From an uncultured Myxococcales bacterium (GTDB lineage: Bacteria; Myxococcota_A; Polyangia; Palsa-1104; JAEUJZ01): a stretch of 64,000 bases of DNA. Position numbers and translations under genes: made by a program. The stretch spans positions 4,161 to 68,160 of the forward strand of contig CALMML010000112.1 of NCBI GenBank assembly GCA_937868485.1. The letters run 5' to 3'. Position 1 is the stretch's first letter. Each line of letters opens with the position of its first letter. Below, in pieces: positions 3,937 through 61,733 of this stretch. A model generated the notes under the pieces. The model had not been told where the DNA came from, did no database searches, and worked only from the letters and a program-made list of their open reading frames with translations.

Positions 3937-4835
3937 TAGAAGTATCCTTCCTGCTTCTTTTTTTCCATCGAGGCCGCTTGATCGTGATCAATCGCGCGTC
4001 CTTGTCGCTCGGAAGTCGTCGTCAGCAGCATCTCTTGAATGATCGCGGGCAGCGTGTCTGCTTCGCTTTCAATCGCGCCGGTCAGCGGATAACAACCAAG
4101 CGTTCGGAAACGGACTTTCTTGCGCTGCGGAGTCTCTCCTTCCCGCAGCGGCAAGCGATCATCATCCACCATCAAGAGCATTCCGCCGCGCTCAACCACC
4201 GGACGCTCTGCCGCAAAGTAGAGCGGAACGATCGGAATCTGTTCCAGGTAGATGTACTGCCAGACATCCAGCTCGGTCCAGTTCGACAAAGGAAAGACAC
4301 GGATGCTCTCTCCCTTGCGCTTGCGGGTGTTGTAAAGCCGCCACAGCTCTGGACGCTGATTCTTCGGATCCCAGCGATGATCCGCACTGCGAAAGGAAAA
4401 CACGCGCTCTTTGGCTCGCGACTTTTCCTCATCGCGGCGCGCACCCCCAATCGCTGCATCAAAGCCATGCAGATCGAGCGCACGCTTGAGCGCCTGCGTC
4501 TTCATCACATCGGTATGCACCGACGATCCGTGCGTAAACGGACTGATGCCCGCATCCAGTCCTTCCTGATGGATGTAGACAATCAGGTTGAGCGATTCCT
4601 GCTGCGCAACCTGATCGCGAAAAGAGATCATCTCGCGAAACTTCCAGGTCGTATCCACATGCAGAAGCGGAAACGGAATCCGTCCCGGTGCAAACGCTTT
4701 CTTGGCCAGGTGCAGCATCACCGAGCTGTCCTTGCCAATCGAGTACATCATCACAGGACGCTCGCACTCTGCGACCACTTCTCGCAGGATGTGAATGCTC
4801 TCTGCTTCGAGCCGTTGTAGATGGGTCAGCGACAT
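3936..4835 (-). CDS. cysD: Sulfate adenylyltransferase subunit 2 (CysD).
   Basis: PAPS-reductase-like ATP pyrophosphatase fold. Motif [13 protein letters not shown] is typical CysD. It overlaps the cysNC start by 1 bp, consistent with an operon. Confidence 0.9.
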
Positions 4836-18013: not shown

Positions 18014-19195
18014 TCAGCCGTGCGTCAGCGCGAAGAACACGCCAACATTCGACAGCAGATAGACTTCGCTGGCAGATGCACTCGGTCGCGCCGAAGCGCC
18101 CTGGCCGGGGTTGAAGGCCTGAAGAAGCTCGCCGCTTGCGCCGTCGACGATCAGCAGCCCACTTGCCACCGAGTTAAACAGCACATACCGACTCCACACG
18201 AGCGGTGCCGAGATCTCGCCGTGCTTGCTCGGACTCTGCTGCCACAGAAGACGCCCCTTGCGGTCGAGCGCAATCATGCCCTGCGTCGCCGAAGCCGCAT
18301 ACAGCCGCTCGCCCCCTGGATCAGCGGCAAGCTGTCCCGCCGCTTCCAGCTCATAGCGCCAGCGCGTCGAGCCGTCTTTGACATCCAGCGCGAACACGCC
18401 GCTTGAAAAGCACGACACAAACAGGGTGTCGCCCATCAGAACAGGCGTGCTGTCCACATCGGTAAAGCGAGTGGCATTACCGGACAGCTGCCGCGTCCAT
18501 AGAAGCTCTCCGTTTTCGGCTTGTAGGCAGCCCAAGTAGCCATCGGGAAAGCCCACGTAGACGCGTCCGCCCGTCACCAGCGCGCCCGAGCCACCGCGAA
18601 TGGCAAAGCCATCGGGCGTCTCTCGCTCGTACTGCCAGACCCACTTACCAGTACCAAGCTTGTGGGCATAGATGCGGCCCGCCGTGGTGGTGGTGAAGAC
18701 CAGTCCGCCCGATACCGTTGGCTGGGTGCGCACCGGACCCGAAAGCTGCATCGACCAGCGAACCTCACCGGTCTTGGGCGACAGCGCGGTCAGCATGCCA
18801 TCGTCATCTCCGACCAGCAGCAGCGGCTCGTTGGTCGCTTCGCCCGCCGGCACGTACAGTGGCTCGGATGCCAGTCCGCCGGTGAGCTGATGTCGCCACA
18901 GGACCTCGCCGTCACGCTGGCGCAGGGCATACAGCACCTTGGCCGAGCTACCAACAAACACAGTCTGACCATCGGGAGACAGCGCGGCGGTCGCAAACTC
19001 TTGGGGGTTGTAAGCGAAGAAGGCCTGAGACAAGACCAGAGGCCGACTCCAGCGAACCCGCAGCACCGCTTCGGGCGCGATGAATGTCTCGCGCGCCATT
19101 GTCACCCCGCCGAGCTTGGCCGGACGCGGCGCCAGGCCGAGGCCCGCGCACCCACACAGTCCCAGCACAAGCGGCAGCCACGCCTTGGCTGTCAT
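18014..19195 (-). CDS. bamB: BamB-like PQQ beta-propeller lipoprotein (outer membrane protein assembly factor).
   Basis: Lipobox LGLCGC. Repeated G.vlW...g....s.P motifs of PQQ-type propeller blades. It directly follows a yfgM-like gene, as in E. coli yfgM-bamB. Confidence 0.7.
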   Translation of the reverse strand: MTAKAWLPLVLGLCGCAGLGLAPRPAKLGGVTMARETFIAPEAVLRVRWSRPLVLSQAFFAYNPQEFATAALSPDGQTVFVGSSAKVLYALRQRDGEVLWRHQLTGGLASEPLYVPAGEATNEPLLLVGDDDGMLTALSPKTGEVRWSMQLSGPVRTQPTVSGGLVFTTTTAGRIYAHKLGTGKWVWQYERETPDGFAIRGGSGALVTGGRVYVGFPDGYLGCLQAENGELLWTRQLSGNATRFTDVDSTPVLMGDTLFVSCFSSGVFALDVKDGSTRWRYELEAAGQLAADPGGERLYAASATQGMIALDRKGRLLWQQSPSKHGEISAPLVWSRYVLFNSVASGLLIVDGASGELLQAFNPGQGASARPSASASEVYLLSNVGVFFALTHG

Positions 19196-19924
19196 CTACT
19201 GCTCCAGCTGCGACAGGCGGTTCTGGATGTCGTCGCGCAGCGAGCTCTTCGCATCGCCCTTGGCCAGCATCTCTTTGTAGATCTCGATGGCTTTGGCCTT
19301 GTTGCCTTGCTTGGCGTAGATCCGAGCCAGGTTCCACTGCGAGCGCTCTTTCCACAGATCGCCCGCCGTCTGCGCCGTATAAGCCGCCAGCGCAGCGTTC
19401 AGATCGCCACGCGCCTCGGCACACAGGCCAATGCCTTCTTGGGCCATCAGCACCAGCGCTTGCTCTCGCGGCTTGGCATCGACGAAGCGACGATACAGCG
19501 ACTCGGCTTCGGGATAGCGGCCCTGATCGTAGGCCAGCGACGCCTTCACCAGCGTCGCCCGCAGCGCAGCCGGGGTGCTGGCATAGTCCTTGTCTAGGTC
19601 GCCCAGCACCTTGAGCGCACTGTCCTGGCGCTCCTTGTTCGTCTTAAAGCGTGGAACCTCGTCGCTCTGCTCCACGTCTTTTTCTTGCTCGGTGATGAGC
19701 GGCGCTTCAGAAATCCGAAGGGCCCGCCCCAGCGCTTCCGTCGAGCGCTCCTTGCGTCCATCCAGGTACTGAGTGATCGCCCATCCCGCGACGATCACGA
19801 CCACCAGTCCGACCAGCAGCACCAGACCGCGCGAAAAATACACGGTGATGCTTTCCCACTTCCGCTGCCAAAAGCCAACGAACCCGTCCGGGGCTCCCGA
19901 GGCTGTATGGTGTTGTTTGGACAC
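19196..19924 (-). CDS. YfgM-like TPR membrane protein (N-terminal TM anchor, periplasmic TPR).
   Basis: GAAGGAG RBS sits 6 nt upstream of a GTG at 19924. TM helix LVLLVGLVVVIVAGWAI is followed by a TPR-like region. It is translationally adjacent to bamB (stop/start at 19195/19196). Confidence 0.6.
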   Translation of the reverse strand: MSKQHHTASGAPDGFVGFWQRKWESITVYFSRGLVLLVGLVVVIVAGWAITQYLDGRKERSTEALGRALRISEAPLITEQEKDVEQSDEVPRFKTNKERQDSALKVLGDLDKDYASTPAALRATLVKASLAYDQGRYPEAESLYRRFVDAKPREQALVLMAQEGIGLCAEARGDLNAALAAYTAQTAGDLWKERSQWNLARIYAKQGNKAKAIEIYKEMLAKGDAKSSLRDDIQNRLSQLEQ

Positions 19925-20180
19925 GCAAAGCTCCTTCCGAAGAGGTAGGGACGCTAACAAACCCGGCCCGTGTCCGTCAAGAAACGCAAGTGTGCGCGCG
20001 TCGTAGGCCAGTCCCTAGCAGGGCGGCTTGGGCGATTGCCGACGCAACCCAACGACTGGCGCACTGGCGCACCGCTTGCCGTTGTCGTGGTCGGGCTGCT
20101 CATGGCCAGGACCGCCGCTTCGCCGTGTCGTAGTCAGGCTTCTTTGGAACGGAAGCGCAGCTTCAACCGCTCGTGAATGC

Positions 20181-20460
20181 GCGCTGCGTTCGCCTGACTG
20201 TGCTTTCAGCGCCCAGTGTCGCGCTCGGCGTTCGCCTGACTGCGCTTTCAGCGCCCGGCGTCGCGCTCGGCGTTCGCTTGGCTGTGCTTTCAGCGCCCAG
20301 AGTCGCGCTCGGCGTGCGCTTGGCTGCGCTTTCAGCGCCCGGAGTCATGCTCGGCGTGCGCTTGGCTGCGCTTTCAGCGCCCGGAGTCATGCTCGGCGTG
20401 CGCTTGGCTGCGCTTTCAGCGCTCAGAGTCGTGCTCGGCGTTCGCCTGGCTGCGCTCTGC
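20181..20460. repeat. Tandem array of about 6.7 copies of a 42-bp unit (GCGCTCGGCGTKCGCYTGRCTGYGCTTTCAGCGCCCRGMGTC). Each unit contains the palindrome GCGCT-TTC-AGCGC.
   Basis: Read directly from the sequence. Units are 42 bp, contiguous with no unique spacers, and differ by a few SNPs. The array lies between the queE 3' end and the yfgM-like start. Confidence 0.85.
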
Positions 20461-20488
20461 GTGGTGCAAGCGACACACCGAGTCCCAG

Positions 20489-21148
20489 CTACGGAATACC
20501 AAGGAGCTTGTGGGTTTGAAGCGACAGACGCCAGCGAGGGTGGCGCTGGCAGTACGCGATGGCAGAGGCGGTGTTCTCCGCGCGCAGCGGGCCGTCCATG
20601 GGCTGAAGGAAACAGGACGAAAAGCGGAGGTCAGCGAAGCGCTCGGGCTCCGCACCAGGCTGCGGGAAGACCAGCTTGAGCTCATCCCCAGCGTCTAGCA
20701 CCAGGGTGCTGCCCGCCTTGGGAGACACGCAGACCCAGTCGATGCAATCAGCGGCGGAACCGGTGGGCACGGGCTGGGTTCCGTTTGTCTCGATGGCAAT
20801 GTAGAAGCCGCGTGCGTGCAAGCTGCGACACAGAGCGGCATCGACTTGGAGCAGTGGCTCACCACCCGTGAGGACGACAAAGCGACGCTCTGGATGACTG
20901 AGGGCGTGGGCATCCCAGCAGGCAAGGACGGCATCGGCGAGCGCGTCGGCATCAGCGAACTTGCCACCGCCGGGTCCATCGGTACCGATGAAGTCCGTGT
21001 CGCAGAAGCGACAGGTTGCGCTGGCGCGGTCGGACTCGCGACCACTCCACAGGTTGCAGCCCGCAAAGCGACAGAACACGGCGGAGCGCCCCGTGTGTGA
21101 GCCCTCGCCTTGCAGGGTATAAAACAGCTCCTTTACCGCGTAACCCAT
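20489..21148 (-). CDS. queE: 7-carboxy-7-deazaguanine synthase QueE (radical SAM).
   Basis: ELFYTLQGEG N-terminus, CxxxCxxC-like cluster region (FCRFAGCNLWSG...CRFCDT), and GGEPLL. Confidence 0.85.
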   Translation of the reverse strand: MGYAVKELFYTLQGEGSHTGRSAVFCRFAGCNLWSGRESDRASATCRFCDTDFIGTDGPGGGKFADADALADAVLACWDAHALSHPERRFVVLTGGEPLLQVDAALCRSLHARGFYIAIETNGTQPVPTGSAADCIDWVCVSPKAGSTLVLDAGDELKLVFPQPGAEPERFADLRFSSCFLQPMDGPLRAENTASAIAYCQRHPRWRLSLQTHKLLGIP

Positions 21149-49261: not shown

Positions 49262-50548
49262 CTAGCGCTTGCCGGTGCGGGCTTCGCTGGCGCGACCGCG
49301 ACAAGTCCCCGAGCAGAAGCGACGAACGGCGGTGCGGCCCGAGACCTTGACCACGAACTCCTTGCCGCACTTCTCCCACTCGCAGATCCGCAGCTCTTCA
49401 TCCGGTCCGAGCGTGCGCTCGCCGTCTTTTTTGCTGCCACGGCTCTTCTTGGACTCCTTAACGGGAGCCACTTCGGCCTCTTCCACTTCTTCGACCACCG
49501 CAGCCTTGGCAGCCGCCTTGGCCGGGCTCGCCTTACCAGCCGACTTGCTCGATGGGGCCGACTTGCTCGATGCCACCGGGCTCGCCGCGCTCGACTTGCT
49601 TGACGGCTTGACCGCAGCTTCCGCCTTGGCCGACTTGTCTGCTTTGGCAGTGACCTTGTCCGCTTTGGCAGCCTTGTCGGCTTTGTCAGCCTTCACTGGC
49701 TCGGCCTTGGCCGACTTGCTCGAGGGCGCAGGCTCTGCCTTCACCGACTTGGCGGACTTGGCCGGCGCTTCTTCCTTCGCAGCCTTCTTGGGAGCCGGGC
49801 TCGCCTTGCTGGACTTGCTCGACTTGGCCGAGATCACTTCTTCCTCGTCCGCGTCCGCAAGGTCATCCGCCTCATCGTCCAGGTCATCCAGCACCACCGG
49901 CTTGCTCAGCACCTTGGTGGCCGACTTGCTCGACTTGGCCGCCTTGCTCGGAGCCTCTGGGGCTTTTTCAGGCTCTGCCTTGGCGGCATCCTTCTTCGCA
50001 GGCTTTTTGTCGTCGGCCTTGGCCGCCACGGCCTTGCTCACCGGCTCAGCCGCCACCGCCTTGGCTGCCTTCTTATCGACAACCTTTTCAGGCAGCTTCT
50101 CTGCGGTCTTTTCGGCCTTGCCCGGCGACTTGCTGGACGGAGCAGGCTCCGCAGCCGCCTTCCGATCGAGCAGGGCTTCCGCCTTGCGACGCTCCACCGC
50201 TTCTGCCACCGCAGACTTGGCTGCGGCGACCGGCTCTGCCTTGGCGGGAGCAGCCACCGGCGCTTTCTTGTCTGCCCTGGCAAGAACTGCGGCCTTCACT
50301 GCGTCTACGGATTTCGCGGGCGGAGGCAGATCGCCAGCCGCTGGACGCTCCGGCGGCATCGGCTTGCTGTTACTTACGGAGCCATCGCGGCCCGAAGTAT
50401 CAACCCGGACCGGTCGCGGCTTCGATGGAAGCGGGCGAGTCACTTCACAAGAAGGAACTCGCTCTGCCGAGCGCGGCACCATCGGCGCAAAGGGATCTAC
50501 AGGTCGGAAGGCCGGCGTTGGGGGCGTAAAGTGTCGTCCGTTGCTCAT
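49262..50548 (-). CDS. Lys/Ala/Pro-rich histone-H1-like low-complexity protein with a C-terminal C4 zinc ribbon.
   Basis: KAAK/AKAE repeats. C-terminal RICEWEKCGKEFVV...FCSGTCRG. Minus-strand codon usage (AAG Lys, TCG/AGC Ser) fits the genome better than the antisense Ala/Leu ORF at 49269-50597. Confidence 0.55.
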   Translation of the reverse strand: MSNGRHFTPPTPAFRPVDPFAPMVPRSAERVPSCEVTRPLPSKPRPVRVDTSGRDGSVSNSKPMPPERPAAGDLPPPAKSVDAVKAAVLARADKKAPVAAPAKAEPVAAAKSAVAEAVERRKAEALLDRKAAAEPAPSSKSPGKAEKTAEKLPEKVVDKKAAKAVAAEPVSKAVAAKADDKKPAKKDAAKAEPEKAPEAPSKAAKSSKSATKVLSKPVVLDDLDDEADDLADADEEEVISAKSSKSSKASPAPKKAAKEEAPAKSAKSVKAEPAPSSKSAKAEPVKADKADKAAKADKVTAKADKSAKAEAAVKPSSKSSAASPVASSKSAPSSKSAGKASPAKAAAKAAVVEEVEEAEVAPVKESKKSRGSKKDGERTLGPDEELRICEWEKCGKEFVVKVSGRTAVRRFCSGTCRGRASEARTGKR

Positions 50549-53241: not shown

Positions 53242-53766
53242 CTAGCTCGGCAGGCTGCCGCTTGGGGGCGTCTCGCCTTCCGCAACGGGAGAGCGCAGCT
53301 TTGGACCCAGCTCTTCCAGGAGCGGCTCGACCGCAGCACCTTGCAAGACCACCTGGCCGAGCAGCTCGTAGAAGTCGATCATCGTGTCGATGGTGGTCGA
53401 TACCAGCCGGAACAGATGGTCGTAGGACAGTGCGCCATCGTCCGTCCGTGGCACCACCACCCGGTAGTAGAGCAGCCGGTTGTCGTGGTCGATGCCAAAG
53501 GCGGGCATGATCAGCCGGTGATTGATGAGCGCCACTGCGTGCTCAGCAAGCTGCATGTGCTGCGGAGGAATCTTGTAGGGGAACGCCACGGCAAACTGAG
53601 CGAGCAGGAGCTGCTTTTCCCAGCGGATGATCATCTCGCTGTCGAGCGGCCCGTTCTTCACCGCGAACGACACCACCTGCTTGTCGGGATCGGGCTGGCA
53701 CGGCACGTTCTCAGACTCCAGCAGCGCCACCAGCTCCGCAAAGGTCGAAACCATCTTCACATCCAT
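53242..53766 (-). CDS. Hypothetical protein, possibly YbjN-like (T3SS-chaperone-like fold).
   Basis: 174 aa, coding-like. Weak resemblance only. Confidence 0.4.
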   Translation of the reverse strand: MDVKMVSTFAELVALLESENVPCQPDPDKQVVSFAVKNGPLDSEMIIRWEKQLLLAQFAVAFPYKIPPQHMQLAEHAVALINHRLIMPAFGIDHDNRLLYYRVVVPRTDDGALSYDHLFRLVSTTIDTMIDFYELLGQVVLQGAAVEPLLEELGPKLRSPVAEGETPPSGSLPS

Positions 53767-53899: not shown

Positions 53900-54130
53900 C
53901 TTCAGAAGGGTCTAGACCCTCGGCAAACGCCTCACCGACCCCTGGCCCGATGGTCTTCACCCTTCGCCATCGCCTCGCCGACCCCTTCGCGAAGGGTCGG
54001 GACCCTGCTCAAGCGGCTCACCGACCCCTTGCCCGATGGTCTTCACCCTTCGCCATCGCCTCGCCGACCCCTTGCCCGATGGTCTTCACCCTTCGCCATC
54101 GCCTCACCGACCTCTTCGGGAAGAGTCGGG
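53900..54130. repeat. Cluster of short palindromic intergenic repeats (REP-like). It contains three copies of CGCCTCRCCGACCCCTTGCCCGATGGTCTTCACCCTTCGCCAT plus GGGTC..GACCC palindromes.
   Basis: Read directly. Irregular spacing, no uniform spacers. Translated shadow ORFs (53627-54403, 53950-54351) show repeated peptides. Confidence 0.7.
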
Positions 54131-54134
54131 ACCG

Positions 54135-54692
54135 TTACTTGCCTGCGAGCAGCTCGGTCTTCAGGCCGTCATCGGCAGGCTTGGGGCCCAGCCAGCTTAA
54201 GAAGATGGCGTCCGCGAAGTCTTTGCCTTCAATGGTGGCGGAGCCGCTGCCCTGCATTGCAATGGTGGTGCCCTTGCCCGGTACGTACGAGACGGTCAGG
54301 ACCGTGCCCGCCTTGGCATCGCCGATGGCAGCGGCCACCTTGTCCAGGTGAGGCAGCAGTGCGGCGGCCTTGCTCGCAGCGTTCTTTTCAAAGCCTTCCT
54401 TAAAGGCGCCCATCAGCTTGCCCTTGTCTACCTCACGCAGGAAGCTGAGCTTCATGACCTTGACTGAGTCGGCCTTGACGATGGCAGCAGCGTCTGTGGA
54501 AGACTCTTCCAGATAGAGCGCACCGACATAGACCTTGACCACAAACTTCTTGCGGATGCCCGCGCCATTACACTTGAGGCTCTTGCCTTCGGCGCTGAGC
54601 GTGTCTGCCACTTCGACCCCTGCGACCGGACGGGCCAGGGCGGGCGTAGCAGCAAGCAGCAGAGCGGCCAACGTTACGTGGGTGAGCTTCAT
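54135..54692 (-). CDS. Periplasmic chalcone-isomerase-like (CHI fold) protein.
   Basis: Signal peptide. GAGIRKKFVVKVYVGALYLEE matches the CHI-like G.G.R.K......Y...LY motif. Confidence 0.65.
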   Translation of the reverse strand: MKLTHVTLAALLLAATPALARPVAGVEVADTLSAEGKSLKCNGAGIRKKFVVKVYVGALYLEESSTDAAAIVKADSVKVMKLSFLREVDKGKLMGAFKEGFEKNAASKAAALLPHLDKVAAAIGDAKAGTVLTVSYVPGKGTTIAMQGSGSATIEGKDFADAIFLSWLGPKPADDGLKTELLAGK

Positions 54693-59672: not shown

Positions 59673-60635
59673 CTACTCGTGCTCTTCGCCGCACAGCTTG
59701 AGCAGCAGCCCGTCGAGCTGATCGAGCGACAGATACTGCACTTCGATGATGCCGCTCTGCGCGGTCTTCTGACGCAGATGAACCCGCGTACCGAGCGCTC
59801 GCTGGAGCCGCTCTTCCACATCGCGAACCGACGACGAAGCCTTCTTGTCTTCCTTTGGCGGCTTGTCTTTCGCTTGCGGCTTCTGCGCGCGCCGGACCAG
59901 ATCCTCGGTCTGTCGCACCGACAGCGCCTTTTTGATCACTTGGTCGGCGTTTTCCTCGATGACGTGGGCATCTTCGAGGCCGAGCAGCGCCCGCGCGTGA
60001 CCCATCGCCAGCTGTCCGGTCGCCACTTGATCGCGGACTTTGCCGGGCAGCTTGAGCAGACGCAGCGAGTTCGCCACCGTCGCACGCTCTCGACCGACAC
60101 GCCGAGCCAGCTCTTCCTGGGTGTAGCCGAACTCGTCGGACAGACGACGATAGGCTTCGGCCTCTTCGATCGGGTTCAGATCTTCGCGCTGAAGGTTTTC
60201 GACGAGCGCCAGCTCAAACGCCTGGGCCGCGCTGACGTCTTTGACCACCACCGGAACGTCTTTGAGCCCGGCTTTCTGCGACGCACGCCAGCGACGCTCA
60301 CCGGCAATCAGGACGAAGCTGCCTTCCCCGAGCTTGTCTTCGGGCGTCCGCATCCGCACAACCAGCGGCTGGACCAGACCTTGGGCACGAATCGACGCGG
60401 CCAGCTCTTCCAGACGCTGCTCGTCGAAGCGCTGCCGAGGGTTATCGACCGACGGCGCAATCTCTTCGATCGGACAGAAGAAGAAGTCTCGACGCGCCAC
60501 CTGGGGCTTGGCAGAGACAGACGGGCTGGCTGCGGTGCCGACATCCTCGACGCCGACCGGCGCTTGGTGAACGGCAGCGGGAAGGTTCGGAATGAGAGCG
60601 CCCAGACCGCGACCGAGTGCTTTGCGCTTGTCCAT
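59673..60635 (-). CDS. parB: Chromosome partitioning protein ParB/Spo0J.
   Basis: ALGRGLGALIP N-terminus, ParB box, HTH. 320 aa. Directly downstream of parA. Confidence 0.9.
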   Translation of the reverse strand: MDKRKALGRGLGALIPNLPAAVHQAPVGVEDVGTAASPSVSAKPQVARRDFFFCPIEEIAPSVDNPRQRFDEQRLEELAASIRAQGLVQPLVVRMRTPEDKLGEGSFVLIAGERRWRASQKAGLKDVPVVVKDVSAAQAFELALVENLQREDLNPIEEAEAYRRLSDEFGYTQEELARRVGRERATVANSLRLLKLPGKVRDQVATGQLAMGHARALLGLEDAHVIEENADQVIKKALSVRQTEDLVRRAQKPQAKDKPPKEDKKASSSVRDVEERLQRALGTRVHLRQKTAQSGIIEVQYLSLDQLDGLLLKLCGEEHE

Positions 60636-61445
60636 TTACGGCGATCCTTGGACGCTCGGCTGCGACGGAGCGGACAGCGCGGCGTTCTTGTGCGAGAGGA
60701 CTTCTTTGGCGAGCTGACCGTACGCATACGAGCCACGCGACGCCGGGTCATACTTCAAAATCGGCAGTCCGTGAGACGGCGCTTCCGACAGGCGAATGTT
60801 ACGCGGCACCAGCGTCTTGTAGACCTTGGGACCAAAGTGGCCGCGCACCTCGCTTTCGACCTGCTGCATCAGGCTCGTGCGGGTATCGACCATCGTCAGC
60901 AAGATGCCTTCCAGCTCTAGGCTTGGGTTCCACACTGCACGAACCTTATCGAGCGTCGAGAGCAGATACGACAGACCTTCCAGCGCAAAGTATTCGCACT
61001 GCATCGGCACGAGCACACCATCGGCAGCCACCAGCGCGTTCAGCGTCAAGAGCCCAAGCGACGGCGGACAGTCGATCAGGATGTAGTCGTAGCGATTGCG
61101 GACCTCAGCGAGCGCGTCGTGAAGCTGCCACTCGCGCCGCTCGGTGCCGACCAGCTCGACCTCGGCACCGGCCAAGTCAGCCGTCGAGGGAACGAGCCAC
61201 AGCGTCGATAGCACCGTAAGCTGCGTCAGCTCTCGCAAGGACACCTTATCAATCAGGCTGTGATAGACGCCTTGCTCGACGGAACCGCGCACAAAGCCCA
61301 GCCCCGAGGTGGCGTTGCCCTGCGGGTCGAAGTCCACGACCAAGACCTTCTCGCCCTCTTCGGCAAGAGCGGCAGCCAAGTTCACGGTGGTGGTGGTCTT
61401 GCCCACTCCACCTTTTTGGTTGGCAACTGCGATGACTCGACCCAT
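60636..61445 (-). CDS. parA: Chromosome partitioning ATPase ParA/Soj.
   Basis: Deviant Walker A VANQKGGVGKTTT. Start MGRVIAV is at the internal ATG 61445. The ORF-track start at 61523 adds a non-conserved extension. Confidence 0.9.
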   Translation of the reverse strand: MGRVIAVANQKGGVGKTTTTVNLAAALAEEGEKVLVVDFDPQGNATSGLGFVRGSVEQGVYHSLIDKVSLRELTQLTVLSTLWLVPSTADLAGAEVELVGTERREWQLHDALAEVRNRYDYILIDCPPSLGLLTLNALVAADGVLVPMQCEYFALEGLSYLLSTLDKVRAVWNPSLELEGILLTMVDTRTSLMQQVESEVRGHFGPKVYKTLVPRNIRLSEAPSHGLPILKYDPASRGSYAYGQLAKEVLSHKNAALSAPSQPSVQGSP

Positions 61446-61733
61446 GGATTCGACTCTCTTATGGCCTCTAGAACCGTTAGACAAAGCGGGCCACAAGATA
61501 GCGACGAGCCGCTGCGCTTTCAAAAAAATCGCCCGAGATAAATTTGACCCGTCGGAAAAGCGGCAATACCAGAAGGTTTATGAGACTTGCCAAGCTTGCG
61601 GCCCGTCCTCACCATCCGGCAAAGAGCGCTGATGCGGAAATCGATGCGATGCTCGATGCGCTGTTCGCCACCGAGCTTCACCCGACCTGGCAAAACCAGG
61701 CGGTGAAGGAAGATCCAAGCGAAGAAACAGCGC

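Follow-up and report, generated by a model that had tools for sequence, protein, structure and literature searches.

The 64,000-nucleotide stretch of DNA considered here (the window; contig CALMML010000112.1 of an uncultured Myxococcales bacterium, positions 4,161 to 68,160) contains a tandem array of 42-bp units at positions 20179-20456, between the end of the queE gene and an operon starting with yfgM-like and bamB-like genes. The nearest analogues of this array overall appear to be the mycobacterial interspersed repetitive units of the variable number tandem repeat type (MIRU-VNTRs) and the tandem repeats of Borgs, the extrachromosomal elements of Methanoperedens. MIRU-VNTRs are formed by direct intergenic units of ~40-100 bp. 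Their copy number varies between strains, and they are absent from the homologous spacers of related species (PMC3184786). The Borg repeats have an A-enriched coding strand and no uniform secondary structure (10.1101/2022.05.18.492195).

The array and the MIRUs are alike in the range of unit size, the position in an intergenic spacer between co-directional genes, polymorphism, absence from relatives and the presence of G+C-rich internal inverted repeats. Indeed, the array consists of direct units within the 40-100 bp range, and its copy number is polymorphic in short-read assemblies. However, the MIRUs form a few related families distributed over roughly 40 loci, whereas the unit of the array was found at one locus only, and other loci contain unrelated units of 42-43 bp; in the ~73 kb of the species' genome sampled, related units at tens of loci were not found. 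The MIRUs also contain small open reading frames (ORFs) overlapping the flanking stop and start codons. The array has no such ORFs, as it lies 32 nt from the queE stop codon and ~255 nt from the yfgM start codon, and the frame continuing from queE stops within the first unit.

With the Borg repeats the array shares independent, locus-specific units, fast turnover, heterogeneity of copy number within populations, A-enrichment, the lack of a uniform secondary structure and flanking partial repeats (10.1101/2022.05.18.492195). On the other hand, the Borg repeats are perfect, have many unit lengths and belong to an archaeal element, whereas the units of the array are 91% alike, have a length of 42-43 bp and reside in a bacterial chromosome.

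The array is a VNTR with strain-variable copy number. Beyond that, we hold with moderate confidence that it is a non-coding, locus-specific, fast-evolving minisatellite in a dispensable spacer bounded by the end of queE on one side and, on the other, by the yfgM/bamB-like operon's own self-contained promoter. It would gain and lose whole 42-bp units, most likely by slippage during replication or by unequal exchange between units, and the queE message probably runs on into the array, which would then form its 3' tail. It would have no sequence-specific job needed by the neighbouring genes, and the yfgM/bamB-like operon presumably does not need it. A regulatory role of the array is unproven. The repeat had been noticed in an initial annotation made from the sequence alone; the repeat does exist and most of its description was correct, but the regulatory reading attached to it, while conceivable, is not supported.

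Structure and copy number of the 42-bp array

The array and its parts have the following positions.

20179-20456, minus strand: 42-bp tandem array (Tandem Repeats Finder, TRF: period 42, 6.6 copies, 91% matches, 0% indels, score 395)
20200..20422, no strand assigned: six 13-bp interrupted palindromes, exactly 42 bp apart
20121..20178, minus strand: decayed copies on the side of the array that faces the promoter (register listing; 70% identity over 20137-20262 in the repeat search)

The repeat search gives a distance of 42 bp between unit starts throughout the array. The units abut head to tail at this exact spacing and there are no unique spacers; CRISPR is thus rejected, as it had been in the initial annotation. 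On the gene-sense (minus) strand, the register listing contains six full units (20456-20205) and a partial unit of 26 nt (20204-20179), with the consensus AGCGCAGCCAAGCGCACGCCGAGCGCGACTCCGGGCGCTGAA; two neighbouring units are identical. A profile built from 22 distinct units and applied with nhmmer to the 64 kb yields six full matches (E from 4e-14 to 6e-12), one partial match and no others. Similarly, the 18-nt core GCTGCGCTTTCAGCGCCC occurs six times in the window at up to three mismatches, every time within the array. The expectation from shuffled sequences is 0.31 matches, and none of 100 shuffles reaches six.

Seven units, each with a palindrome, had been counted originally. The tandem array itself stands, but only six units carry the palindrome (20200-20212, 20242-20254, 20284-20296, 20326-20338, 20368-20380 and 20410-20422). 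Four palindromes are perfect, GCGCTTTCAGCGC (GCGCT-TTC-AGCGC), and two have one mismatch, GTGCTTTCAGCGC (GTGCT-TTC-AGCGC). The copies at both ends are decayed: the one at 20431-20472 has no palindrome, and the one at the opposite end, 20204-20163, is degenerate. Within the decayed edge, the 17-nt segment CCAAAGAAGCCTGACTA (20147-20131) coincides at 16 of 17 positions with the unit of an otherwise unrelated array in a sister species (L029, see below), although this match is marginal (blastn E = 0.1). The array does not fill the space between queE and yfgM, as had been stated, but takes up 278 of its 564 nt; ~255 nt of unique sequence lie between the array and the yfgM start codon.

A unit of 42 bp corresponds to four helical turns, and this arithmetic of the initial annotation holds. 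GCGC is found at unit positions 2, 12, 23 and 35, and therefore the 19 copies of this motif in the array all share a 10.5-bp phase (resultant 0.85, versus at most 0.19 at 10 or 11 bp; p = 0.006 against random placement in a post-hoc test). The unit seems to be a higher-order repeat built from sub-repeats of ~10.5 bp, which were also glimpsed by TRF. Strongly variable positions constitute one of 13 in the hairpin half of the unit versus nine of 29 elsewhere. The gene-sense strand of the array is A-rich and T-poor (68 A versus 17 T).

The alleles of the array were compared in the window and ten other contigs, which encode an identical BamB-like protein and whose flanks differ at 0-5 of 250 positions. 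Exactly this protein is recorded in 200 blocks of the contig collection, and the ten contigs shown for it come mostly from activated-sludge or wastewater assemblies (metagenomes and metagenome-assembled genomes, MAGs). The length of the queE-yfgM spacer in these 11 contigs is 438, 480, 522 or 564 nt, that is, the differences are exact multiples of 42. The number of palindromes is 3, 4, 5 (seven contigs) or 6 (two contigs), and all 11 spacer sequences are distinct. The suggestion that copy number varies between strains has thus been borne out by near-identical contigs. Stability and divergence are both greatest in the units at the edges, and those in the interior resemble one another most closely, as expected if units slip or exchange unequally within the array. 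Among the 54 palindromes of all alleles, 34 are perfect, 17 have a G-to-A substitution that leaves C opposite A in the sense RNA, and three have other one-sided changes. No compensatory changes were found in these 54.

Specificity of the locus and the promoter of the yfgM-like operon

The 22-nt core of the unit has only four single matches in 185,579 species genomes, all in unrelated taxa and none at a locus from the array's own species. It has no matches in viral contigs. In the metagenome collection there are 11 matches, and the only two arrays among them are at the same locus. The nhmmer profile of the unit finds nothing in relatives, and the single matches to the 22-nt pattern elsewhere cover the searched core only. 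No further copies were found in the window or in the 9 kb beyond it, which together make up the ~73 kb sampled. As far as accessible data show, the unit is specific to this locus and is not a dispersed repetitive extragenic palindrome (REP), the outcome that the initial annotation had set against a generic REP family. As a side observation, seven metagenome or MAG contigs (L014, L017-L020, L022, L025; several with Joint Genome Institute identifiers) contain single matches to the 22-nt pattern with a common 18-nt match of equal score and no array; they look like one unrelated conserved sequence.

The array is also missing from relatives. In the sister species L030/L031 (YfgM 80% identical), queE with the same C-terminus lies directly upstream, and the spacer is 127 nt long with no array. 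The spacers in L026/L027 (YfgM 92% identical) and L043 (83%) are 73 and 104 nt, respectively, and have no array at the position upstream of yfgM. All these loci retain the promoter TTGACG-N17/18-TAGCGT described below. Thus the array appears to be young and dispensable at this locus.

The array has the following neighbours, listed in the direction of transcription.

20489-21148, minus strand: queE, 7-carboxy-7-deazaguanine synthase (NCBIfam TIGR04508, 335 bits, cut-off 240), upstream and co-directional
20457..20488, minus strand: 32-nt spacer from the queE stop codon (TAG, 20491-20489) to the first unit
19951..19980, minus strand: predicted sigma-70-type promoter of the yfgM-like operon, from conservation upstream of yfgM orthologues
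19196-19924, minus strand: yfgM-like gene encoding a TPR_21 protein (Pfam PF09976, 34 bits, cut-off 25.5), GTG start at 19924-19922
18014-19195, minus strand: bamB-like gene encoding a beta-propeller protein (PQQ_2, 165 bits)

The array had been placed upstream of the yfgM-like operon. This is correct and can be made more precise: all flanking genes are on the minus strand, and 32 nt separate the queE stop codon from the beginning of the array. The best NCBIfam match of the bamB-like product is the BamB model TIGR03300 (180 bits, under the cut-off of 285). The bamB-like gene is followed by a gene for a 560-aa protein, whose orthologues in relatives are ceramidase-like, and by an Rce1-like gene. 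The gene order of the yfgM-like/bamB-like operon is kept in relatives.

The upstream neighbour of the operon varies among relatives and may be queE, a pair of AAA_21 genes, unknown genes or genes of microcompartment shells. In one relative the synteny break contains DarT/Macro and AAA_21 genes that look defence-related (L026 1-3927), and L033 134-3586 contains bacterial microcompartment shell genes upstream of the operon.

The candidate promoter of the operon consists of the -35 box TTGACG (19980-19975), an 18-nt spacer with TG at 19959-19958 and the -10 box TAGCGT (19956-19951). It is located ~200 bp from the end of the array. The ribosome-binding site AAGGAG of the yfgM-like gene is at 19936-19931. 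A simple sigma-70 consensus scan of positions 19700-20800 fails to flag 19951-19980, since the strict -10 rule misses TAGCGT; therefore the promoter was located by conservation. Orthologous loci were gathered through YfgM homologues. Every one, including those with protein identity as low as 52%, has the pattern TTGACG-N17/18-(TG)nTAGCGT ~35-70 nt before the yfgM start, and among yfgM orthologues there is no conservation further upstream. The equivalent motif is present in L026, L029, L030, L033, L036, L040, L043 and L056. Evidently, judging from this conservation, the promoter is self-contained. It had been proposed that copy number of the array could modulate expression of the envelope-biogenesis operon. 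This proposal is weakened because a promoter belonging to the operon itself lies downstream of the array and is conserved in relatives with array-less spacers of 73-127 nt.

A related precedent comes from Mycobacterium tuberculosis, where the copy number of phase-variable tandem repeats upstream of genes varies within and between populations; these repeats lie in gene promoters and are proposed to alter promoter strength (PMC12817950). In contrast, the units of the array have no promoter-like hexamers and the promoter at 19951-19980 is ~200 bp downstream. The analogy with phase variation is weaker because the array units hold no promoter.

Folding, coding and protein binding

No intrinsic-terminator-like site was found by the scan in the 32-nt spacer between queE and the array. 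In the whole region 19700-20800 the scan found no terminator-like or promoter-like sites in or beside the array and no U-tract. As no terminator precedes it, the array is probably transcribed with queE. One possibility is that it works at the RNA level, as an element of the 3' untranslated region resembling MIRUs or the REPs and bacterial interspersed mosaic elements (BIMEs) of enterobacteria and pseudomonads. Its small GC hairpins would slow 3'-to-5' decay, or would cause partial termination or uncoupling of transcription ahead of the yfgM operon. The immediate vicinity of the queE stop codon is consistent with this, as is the fact that all eight arrays found in the clade start 14-73 nt after a stop codon, mostly between co-directional genes, with a sense strand consistently richer in A than in T. 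Significant structure is seen in some sister arrays (L029, L037 and the second array of the window, see below). Besides, MIRUs are transcribed within polycistronic mRNA (PMC3184786).

However, the array itself folds no better than shuffled sequences on either strand (z-scores from +1.0 to +1.9 sense and from +0.2 to +1.0 antisense). A single RNA hairpin, with a 5-bp stem and a 3-nt loop, has only -6.8 kcal/mol on the sense strand (z = -0.4) and -7.6 on the antisense strand. Hence the reading as a structured REP-like element, suggested in the initial annotation, is rejected for this array. Rfam gives no match at the gathering threshold in the whole window and none at E<=1 in 19850-20550. The commonest palindrome variant replaces G by A in 17 of 54 hairpins and disrupts a pair of the sense RNA with no compensation, nothing resembles a terminator or a U-tract, and the array is absent from the sister species with the same gene pair. 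The array and REP/BIMEs are alike in being extragenic G+C-rich palindromes after stop codons, sometimes clustered. But REP/BIMEs have hundreds of dispersed copies, stable hairpins and alternating orientation, whereas the array was found at one locus, has weak structure and is strictly head-to-tail, all units being direct. Taken together, an RNA-level role of this kind seems unlikely.

It is very improbable that the array encodes a repeat peptide or protein. The period of 42 nt is a multiple of three and would correspond to 14 codons, and open frames cross the array at 20173-20679 (plus strand), 20028-20519 (plus strand) and 20163-20390 (minus strand). However, these three ORFs have no Pfam match, and gene callers placed no gene at the array in ten assemblies. 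The plus-strand ORFs extend antisense into queE, and the sole minus-strand ORF needs an ATG that is missing in the alleles L003, L008 and L010. Analogous sister arrays have a period of 43 nt, which is not divisible by three. Given the lack of Pfam matches and of a conserved start codon, the coding reading is rejected and was already close to refuted.

Two other known types of repeat arrays were considered and rejected. ToxI-like arrays of type III toxin-antitoxin systems lie directly upstream of a toxin gene of the ToxN/AbiQ type. Here the downstream gene encodes a TPR_21 protein, and among the flanking proteins PADLOC yields no relevant match to defence or type III toxin-antitoxin systems. 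Iterons of replication origins are repeats of ~17-22 bp with a spacing of roughly two turns beside a rep gene. In contrast, the array has a period of 42 bp, is flanked by queE and the envelope operon, and is in a chromosomal context.

At the DNA level, the six palindromes, phased on one face, could co-operatively load a dimeric DNA-binding protein, as do the F-plasmid centromere sopC, iterons and operator arrays. The nucleoprotein block formed in this way would insulate the yfgM promoter or tune it, or stop read-through from queE, with the copy number acting as dose. The units of exactly 42 bp, or four turns, the 5-3-5 palindrome in each of them at fixed spacing and the phasing of GCGC at 10.5 bp are in agreement with such a model, and the palindrome half is the least variable part of the unit. 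The same architecture is found in sopC, which consists of twelve direct 43-bp repeats with no spacers, each containing a short inverted repeat of 16 bp bound by SopB (PMC3177203).

Nevertheless, sopC and the array are alike in form only, with one inverted repeat per unit and one palindrome per four helical turns. The centromere is located beside sopAB and is bound by SopB, whereas no partition genes adjoin the array and ParAB is encoded at about 59.7-61.5 kb. The palindrome of the array is shorter (5-3-5) than that of sopC and often imperfect, and several unrelated arrays are present on the same chromosome. The binding-site or iteron-like array of the initial annotation also meets with difficulties: 20 of 54 palindromes, or a third, are imperfect across alleles and show no compensatory changes, and there is no adjoining cognate or other DNA-binding gene. 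parAB lies at a distance of 39 kb, and a search of the window gave no parS-like site (no match to the consensus TGTTCCACGTGGAACA at up to three mismatches). Relatives with no array keep the promoter, which evidently suffices there. Arrays of equal period elsewhere have unrelated sequences with different palindromes or none, and therefore each of them would need its own protein; these other arrays also have no helical-period A/T signal. A protein-binding function is accordingly quite unlikely. For the array at 20179-20456, it and the RNA-level role are conceivable but unsupported readings. Separately, the presence of parA and parB (about 59673-61523) suggests that the window may lie near the chromosomal origin.

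Several observations weigh against the minisatellite reading preferred here. The hairpin half is less variable than the rest of the unit, which could reflect constraint, although the rough estimate is p ~0.1. The phasing of GCGC at 10.5 bp and the unit length of exactly four helical turns fit a ligand specific for one face of DNA. Tandem repeats are found upstream of the same promoter in five of the eight lineages sampled, which could mean selection at this site. The strand-specific A/T bias (68 A versus 17 T) is not predicted by a purely neutral model. The locus specificity of the unit comes from searches that included no complete genome of the species, and diverged copies elsewhere in the chromosome are possible. 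Finally, the alleles were taken from short-read assemblies, which can collapse repeats; as the alleles differ in the patterns of single-nucleotide polymorphisms in their units, it can be argued that the differences are real.

Arrays with units of 42-44 bp in the clade

The array exemplifies a pattern that is typical of this Myxococcales clade, in which arrays with unrelated sequences and equal unit length follow stop codons and turn over rapidly between species and strains. The other arrays are as follows.

L029 3571-3865, L037 2629-2899, L039 610-836 and L036 about 2850: unrelated 43-nt array before the yfgM promoter
L030 2847-3141: 43 nt x 6.9 (TRF), upstream of queE in this contig
L033 8438-8619: 43 nt x 4.3 (TRF)
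L043 148-353: 42/43 nt x 4.9 (TRF)
L026 1862-1965: 42 nt x 2.4 (TRF)
Window 53905-54116, minus strand: second array, 43 nt x 4.4, period 43/86 (TRF), sequence-unrelated to the first

In L029 (YfgM 83% identical), the unrelated array is in the same position upstream of yfgM and has seven copies at an exact spacing of 43 nt. The unit of the L029/L037-type array is approximately GGGTCTGACCCAAAGAAGC.GACTATC.GAAGTCCCCTGCGTT, with the palindrome GGGTCWGACCC. In the 93%-identical species there is one copy of the 43-nt unit in L036, five in L039 and six in L037, and therefore that array is also a VNTR. The second array of the window lies between the co-directional minus-strand genes for a Chalcone_3-like protein (54135-54692) and a YbjN-like protein (53242-53766), and its hairpins include GGGTCTAGACCC and CCGACCCCTTCGCGAAGGGTCGG. 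The spacer with this array is 368 nt in eight contigs versus 239 nt in two; the difference of 129 nt equals 3 x 43. Both arrays of the window are also present on the 837-kb contig JAXLYF010000001.1 of the conspecific assembly GCA_046351615.1; sister MAGs are GCA_016794365.1 and GCA_964607205.1. Thus at least two arrays other than that at 20179-20456 are polymorphic.

Altogether, ~115 kb of the clade contain, in spacers between called genes, eight arrays longer than 100 bp, which belong to at least six unrelated sequence families. By circular Smith-Waterman comparison against shuffles, only the units of L026 and L043 and those of L029 and L037 are related. The unit at 20179-20456 shows no relatedness to the seven other arrays (z from -1.8 to +1.1; none by nhmmer as well). 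In all eight arrays the measured spacing is 42-44 nt. They begin 14-73 nt past the stop codon of the upstream gene, most of them between co-directional genes, and wherever the gene-sense strand is defined it has A>T. No such arrays are present in 83 kb of unrelated control contigs or in 19 kb of a more distant relative (52% identity). The RNA structure of sister arrays varies, with z = -10 in L029, -5.6 in L037 and from -3 to -4 in the second array of the window. As some arrays of the clade are strongly structured and others are not, only the unit length unites the class. DNA curvature was rejected as a general explanation, since the arrays have no helical-period A/T signal at the fourth harmonic. 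A literature search for such repeats in myxobacteria found nothing specific.

Shorter repeats were observed as well. Two further lineages, more distantly related, have short tandem repeats before this promoter too (L040 about 2340-2400; L042 249-297; L033 3869-3909). An 18-nt unit is present in two copies in one contig but in three in a second one, and the unit CGTAAACCGG of 10 nt in four copies. Tandem repeats of 18 nt and 9 nt, both multiples of three, occur at positions 49620-49693 and 49799-49950 of the window, in L026 904-1048 and in L036 1860-2004; the latter two lie within called genes of 325 and 329 aa.

Taken on its own, the array is an ordinary VNTR. It could serve as a strain marker for tracking populations of an abundant, uncultured myxobacterium of activated sludge, and the queE-yfgM spacer calls for caution in annotation and assembly. 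The unexplained and potentially novel part is that units of 42-43 bp recur in arrays unrelated to one another, including independent arrays in one and the same spacer of sister species, as a preferred unit length is not predicted by slippage alone. It is conceivable, if rather doubtful at present, that the array is one member of an undescribed, clade-wide "four-turn" class of minisatellites. Such a class may comprise dozens to hundreds of intergenic arrays with independent units whose length is held at 42-43 bp; these arrays may follow stop codons, be A-rich on the sense strand and be hypervariable within populations. A fixed length with no shared sequence would imply either a length-measuring generator or selection for helical phasing. 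If so, the generator would be a dedicated enzyme or a nucleoprotein ruler, with a logic comparable to that of CRISPR adaptation, and selection for phasing could involve, for instance, array-wide binding by a nucleoid protein. Should the pattern hold genome-wide, these bacteria would seem either to form repeats with an unknown ruler or to be under selection for the phasing of their DNA.

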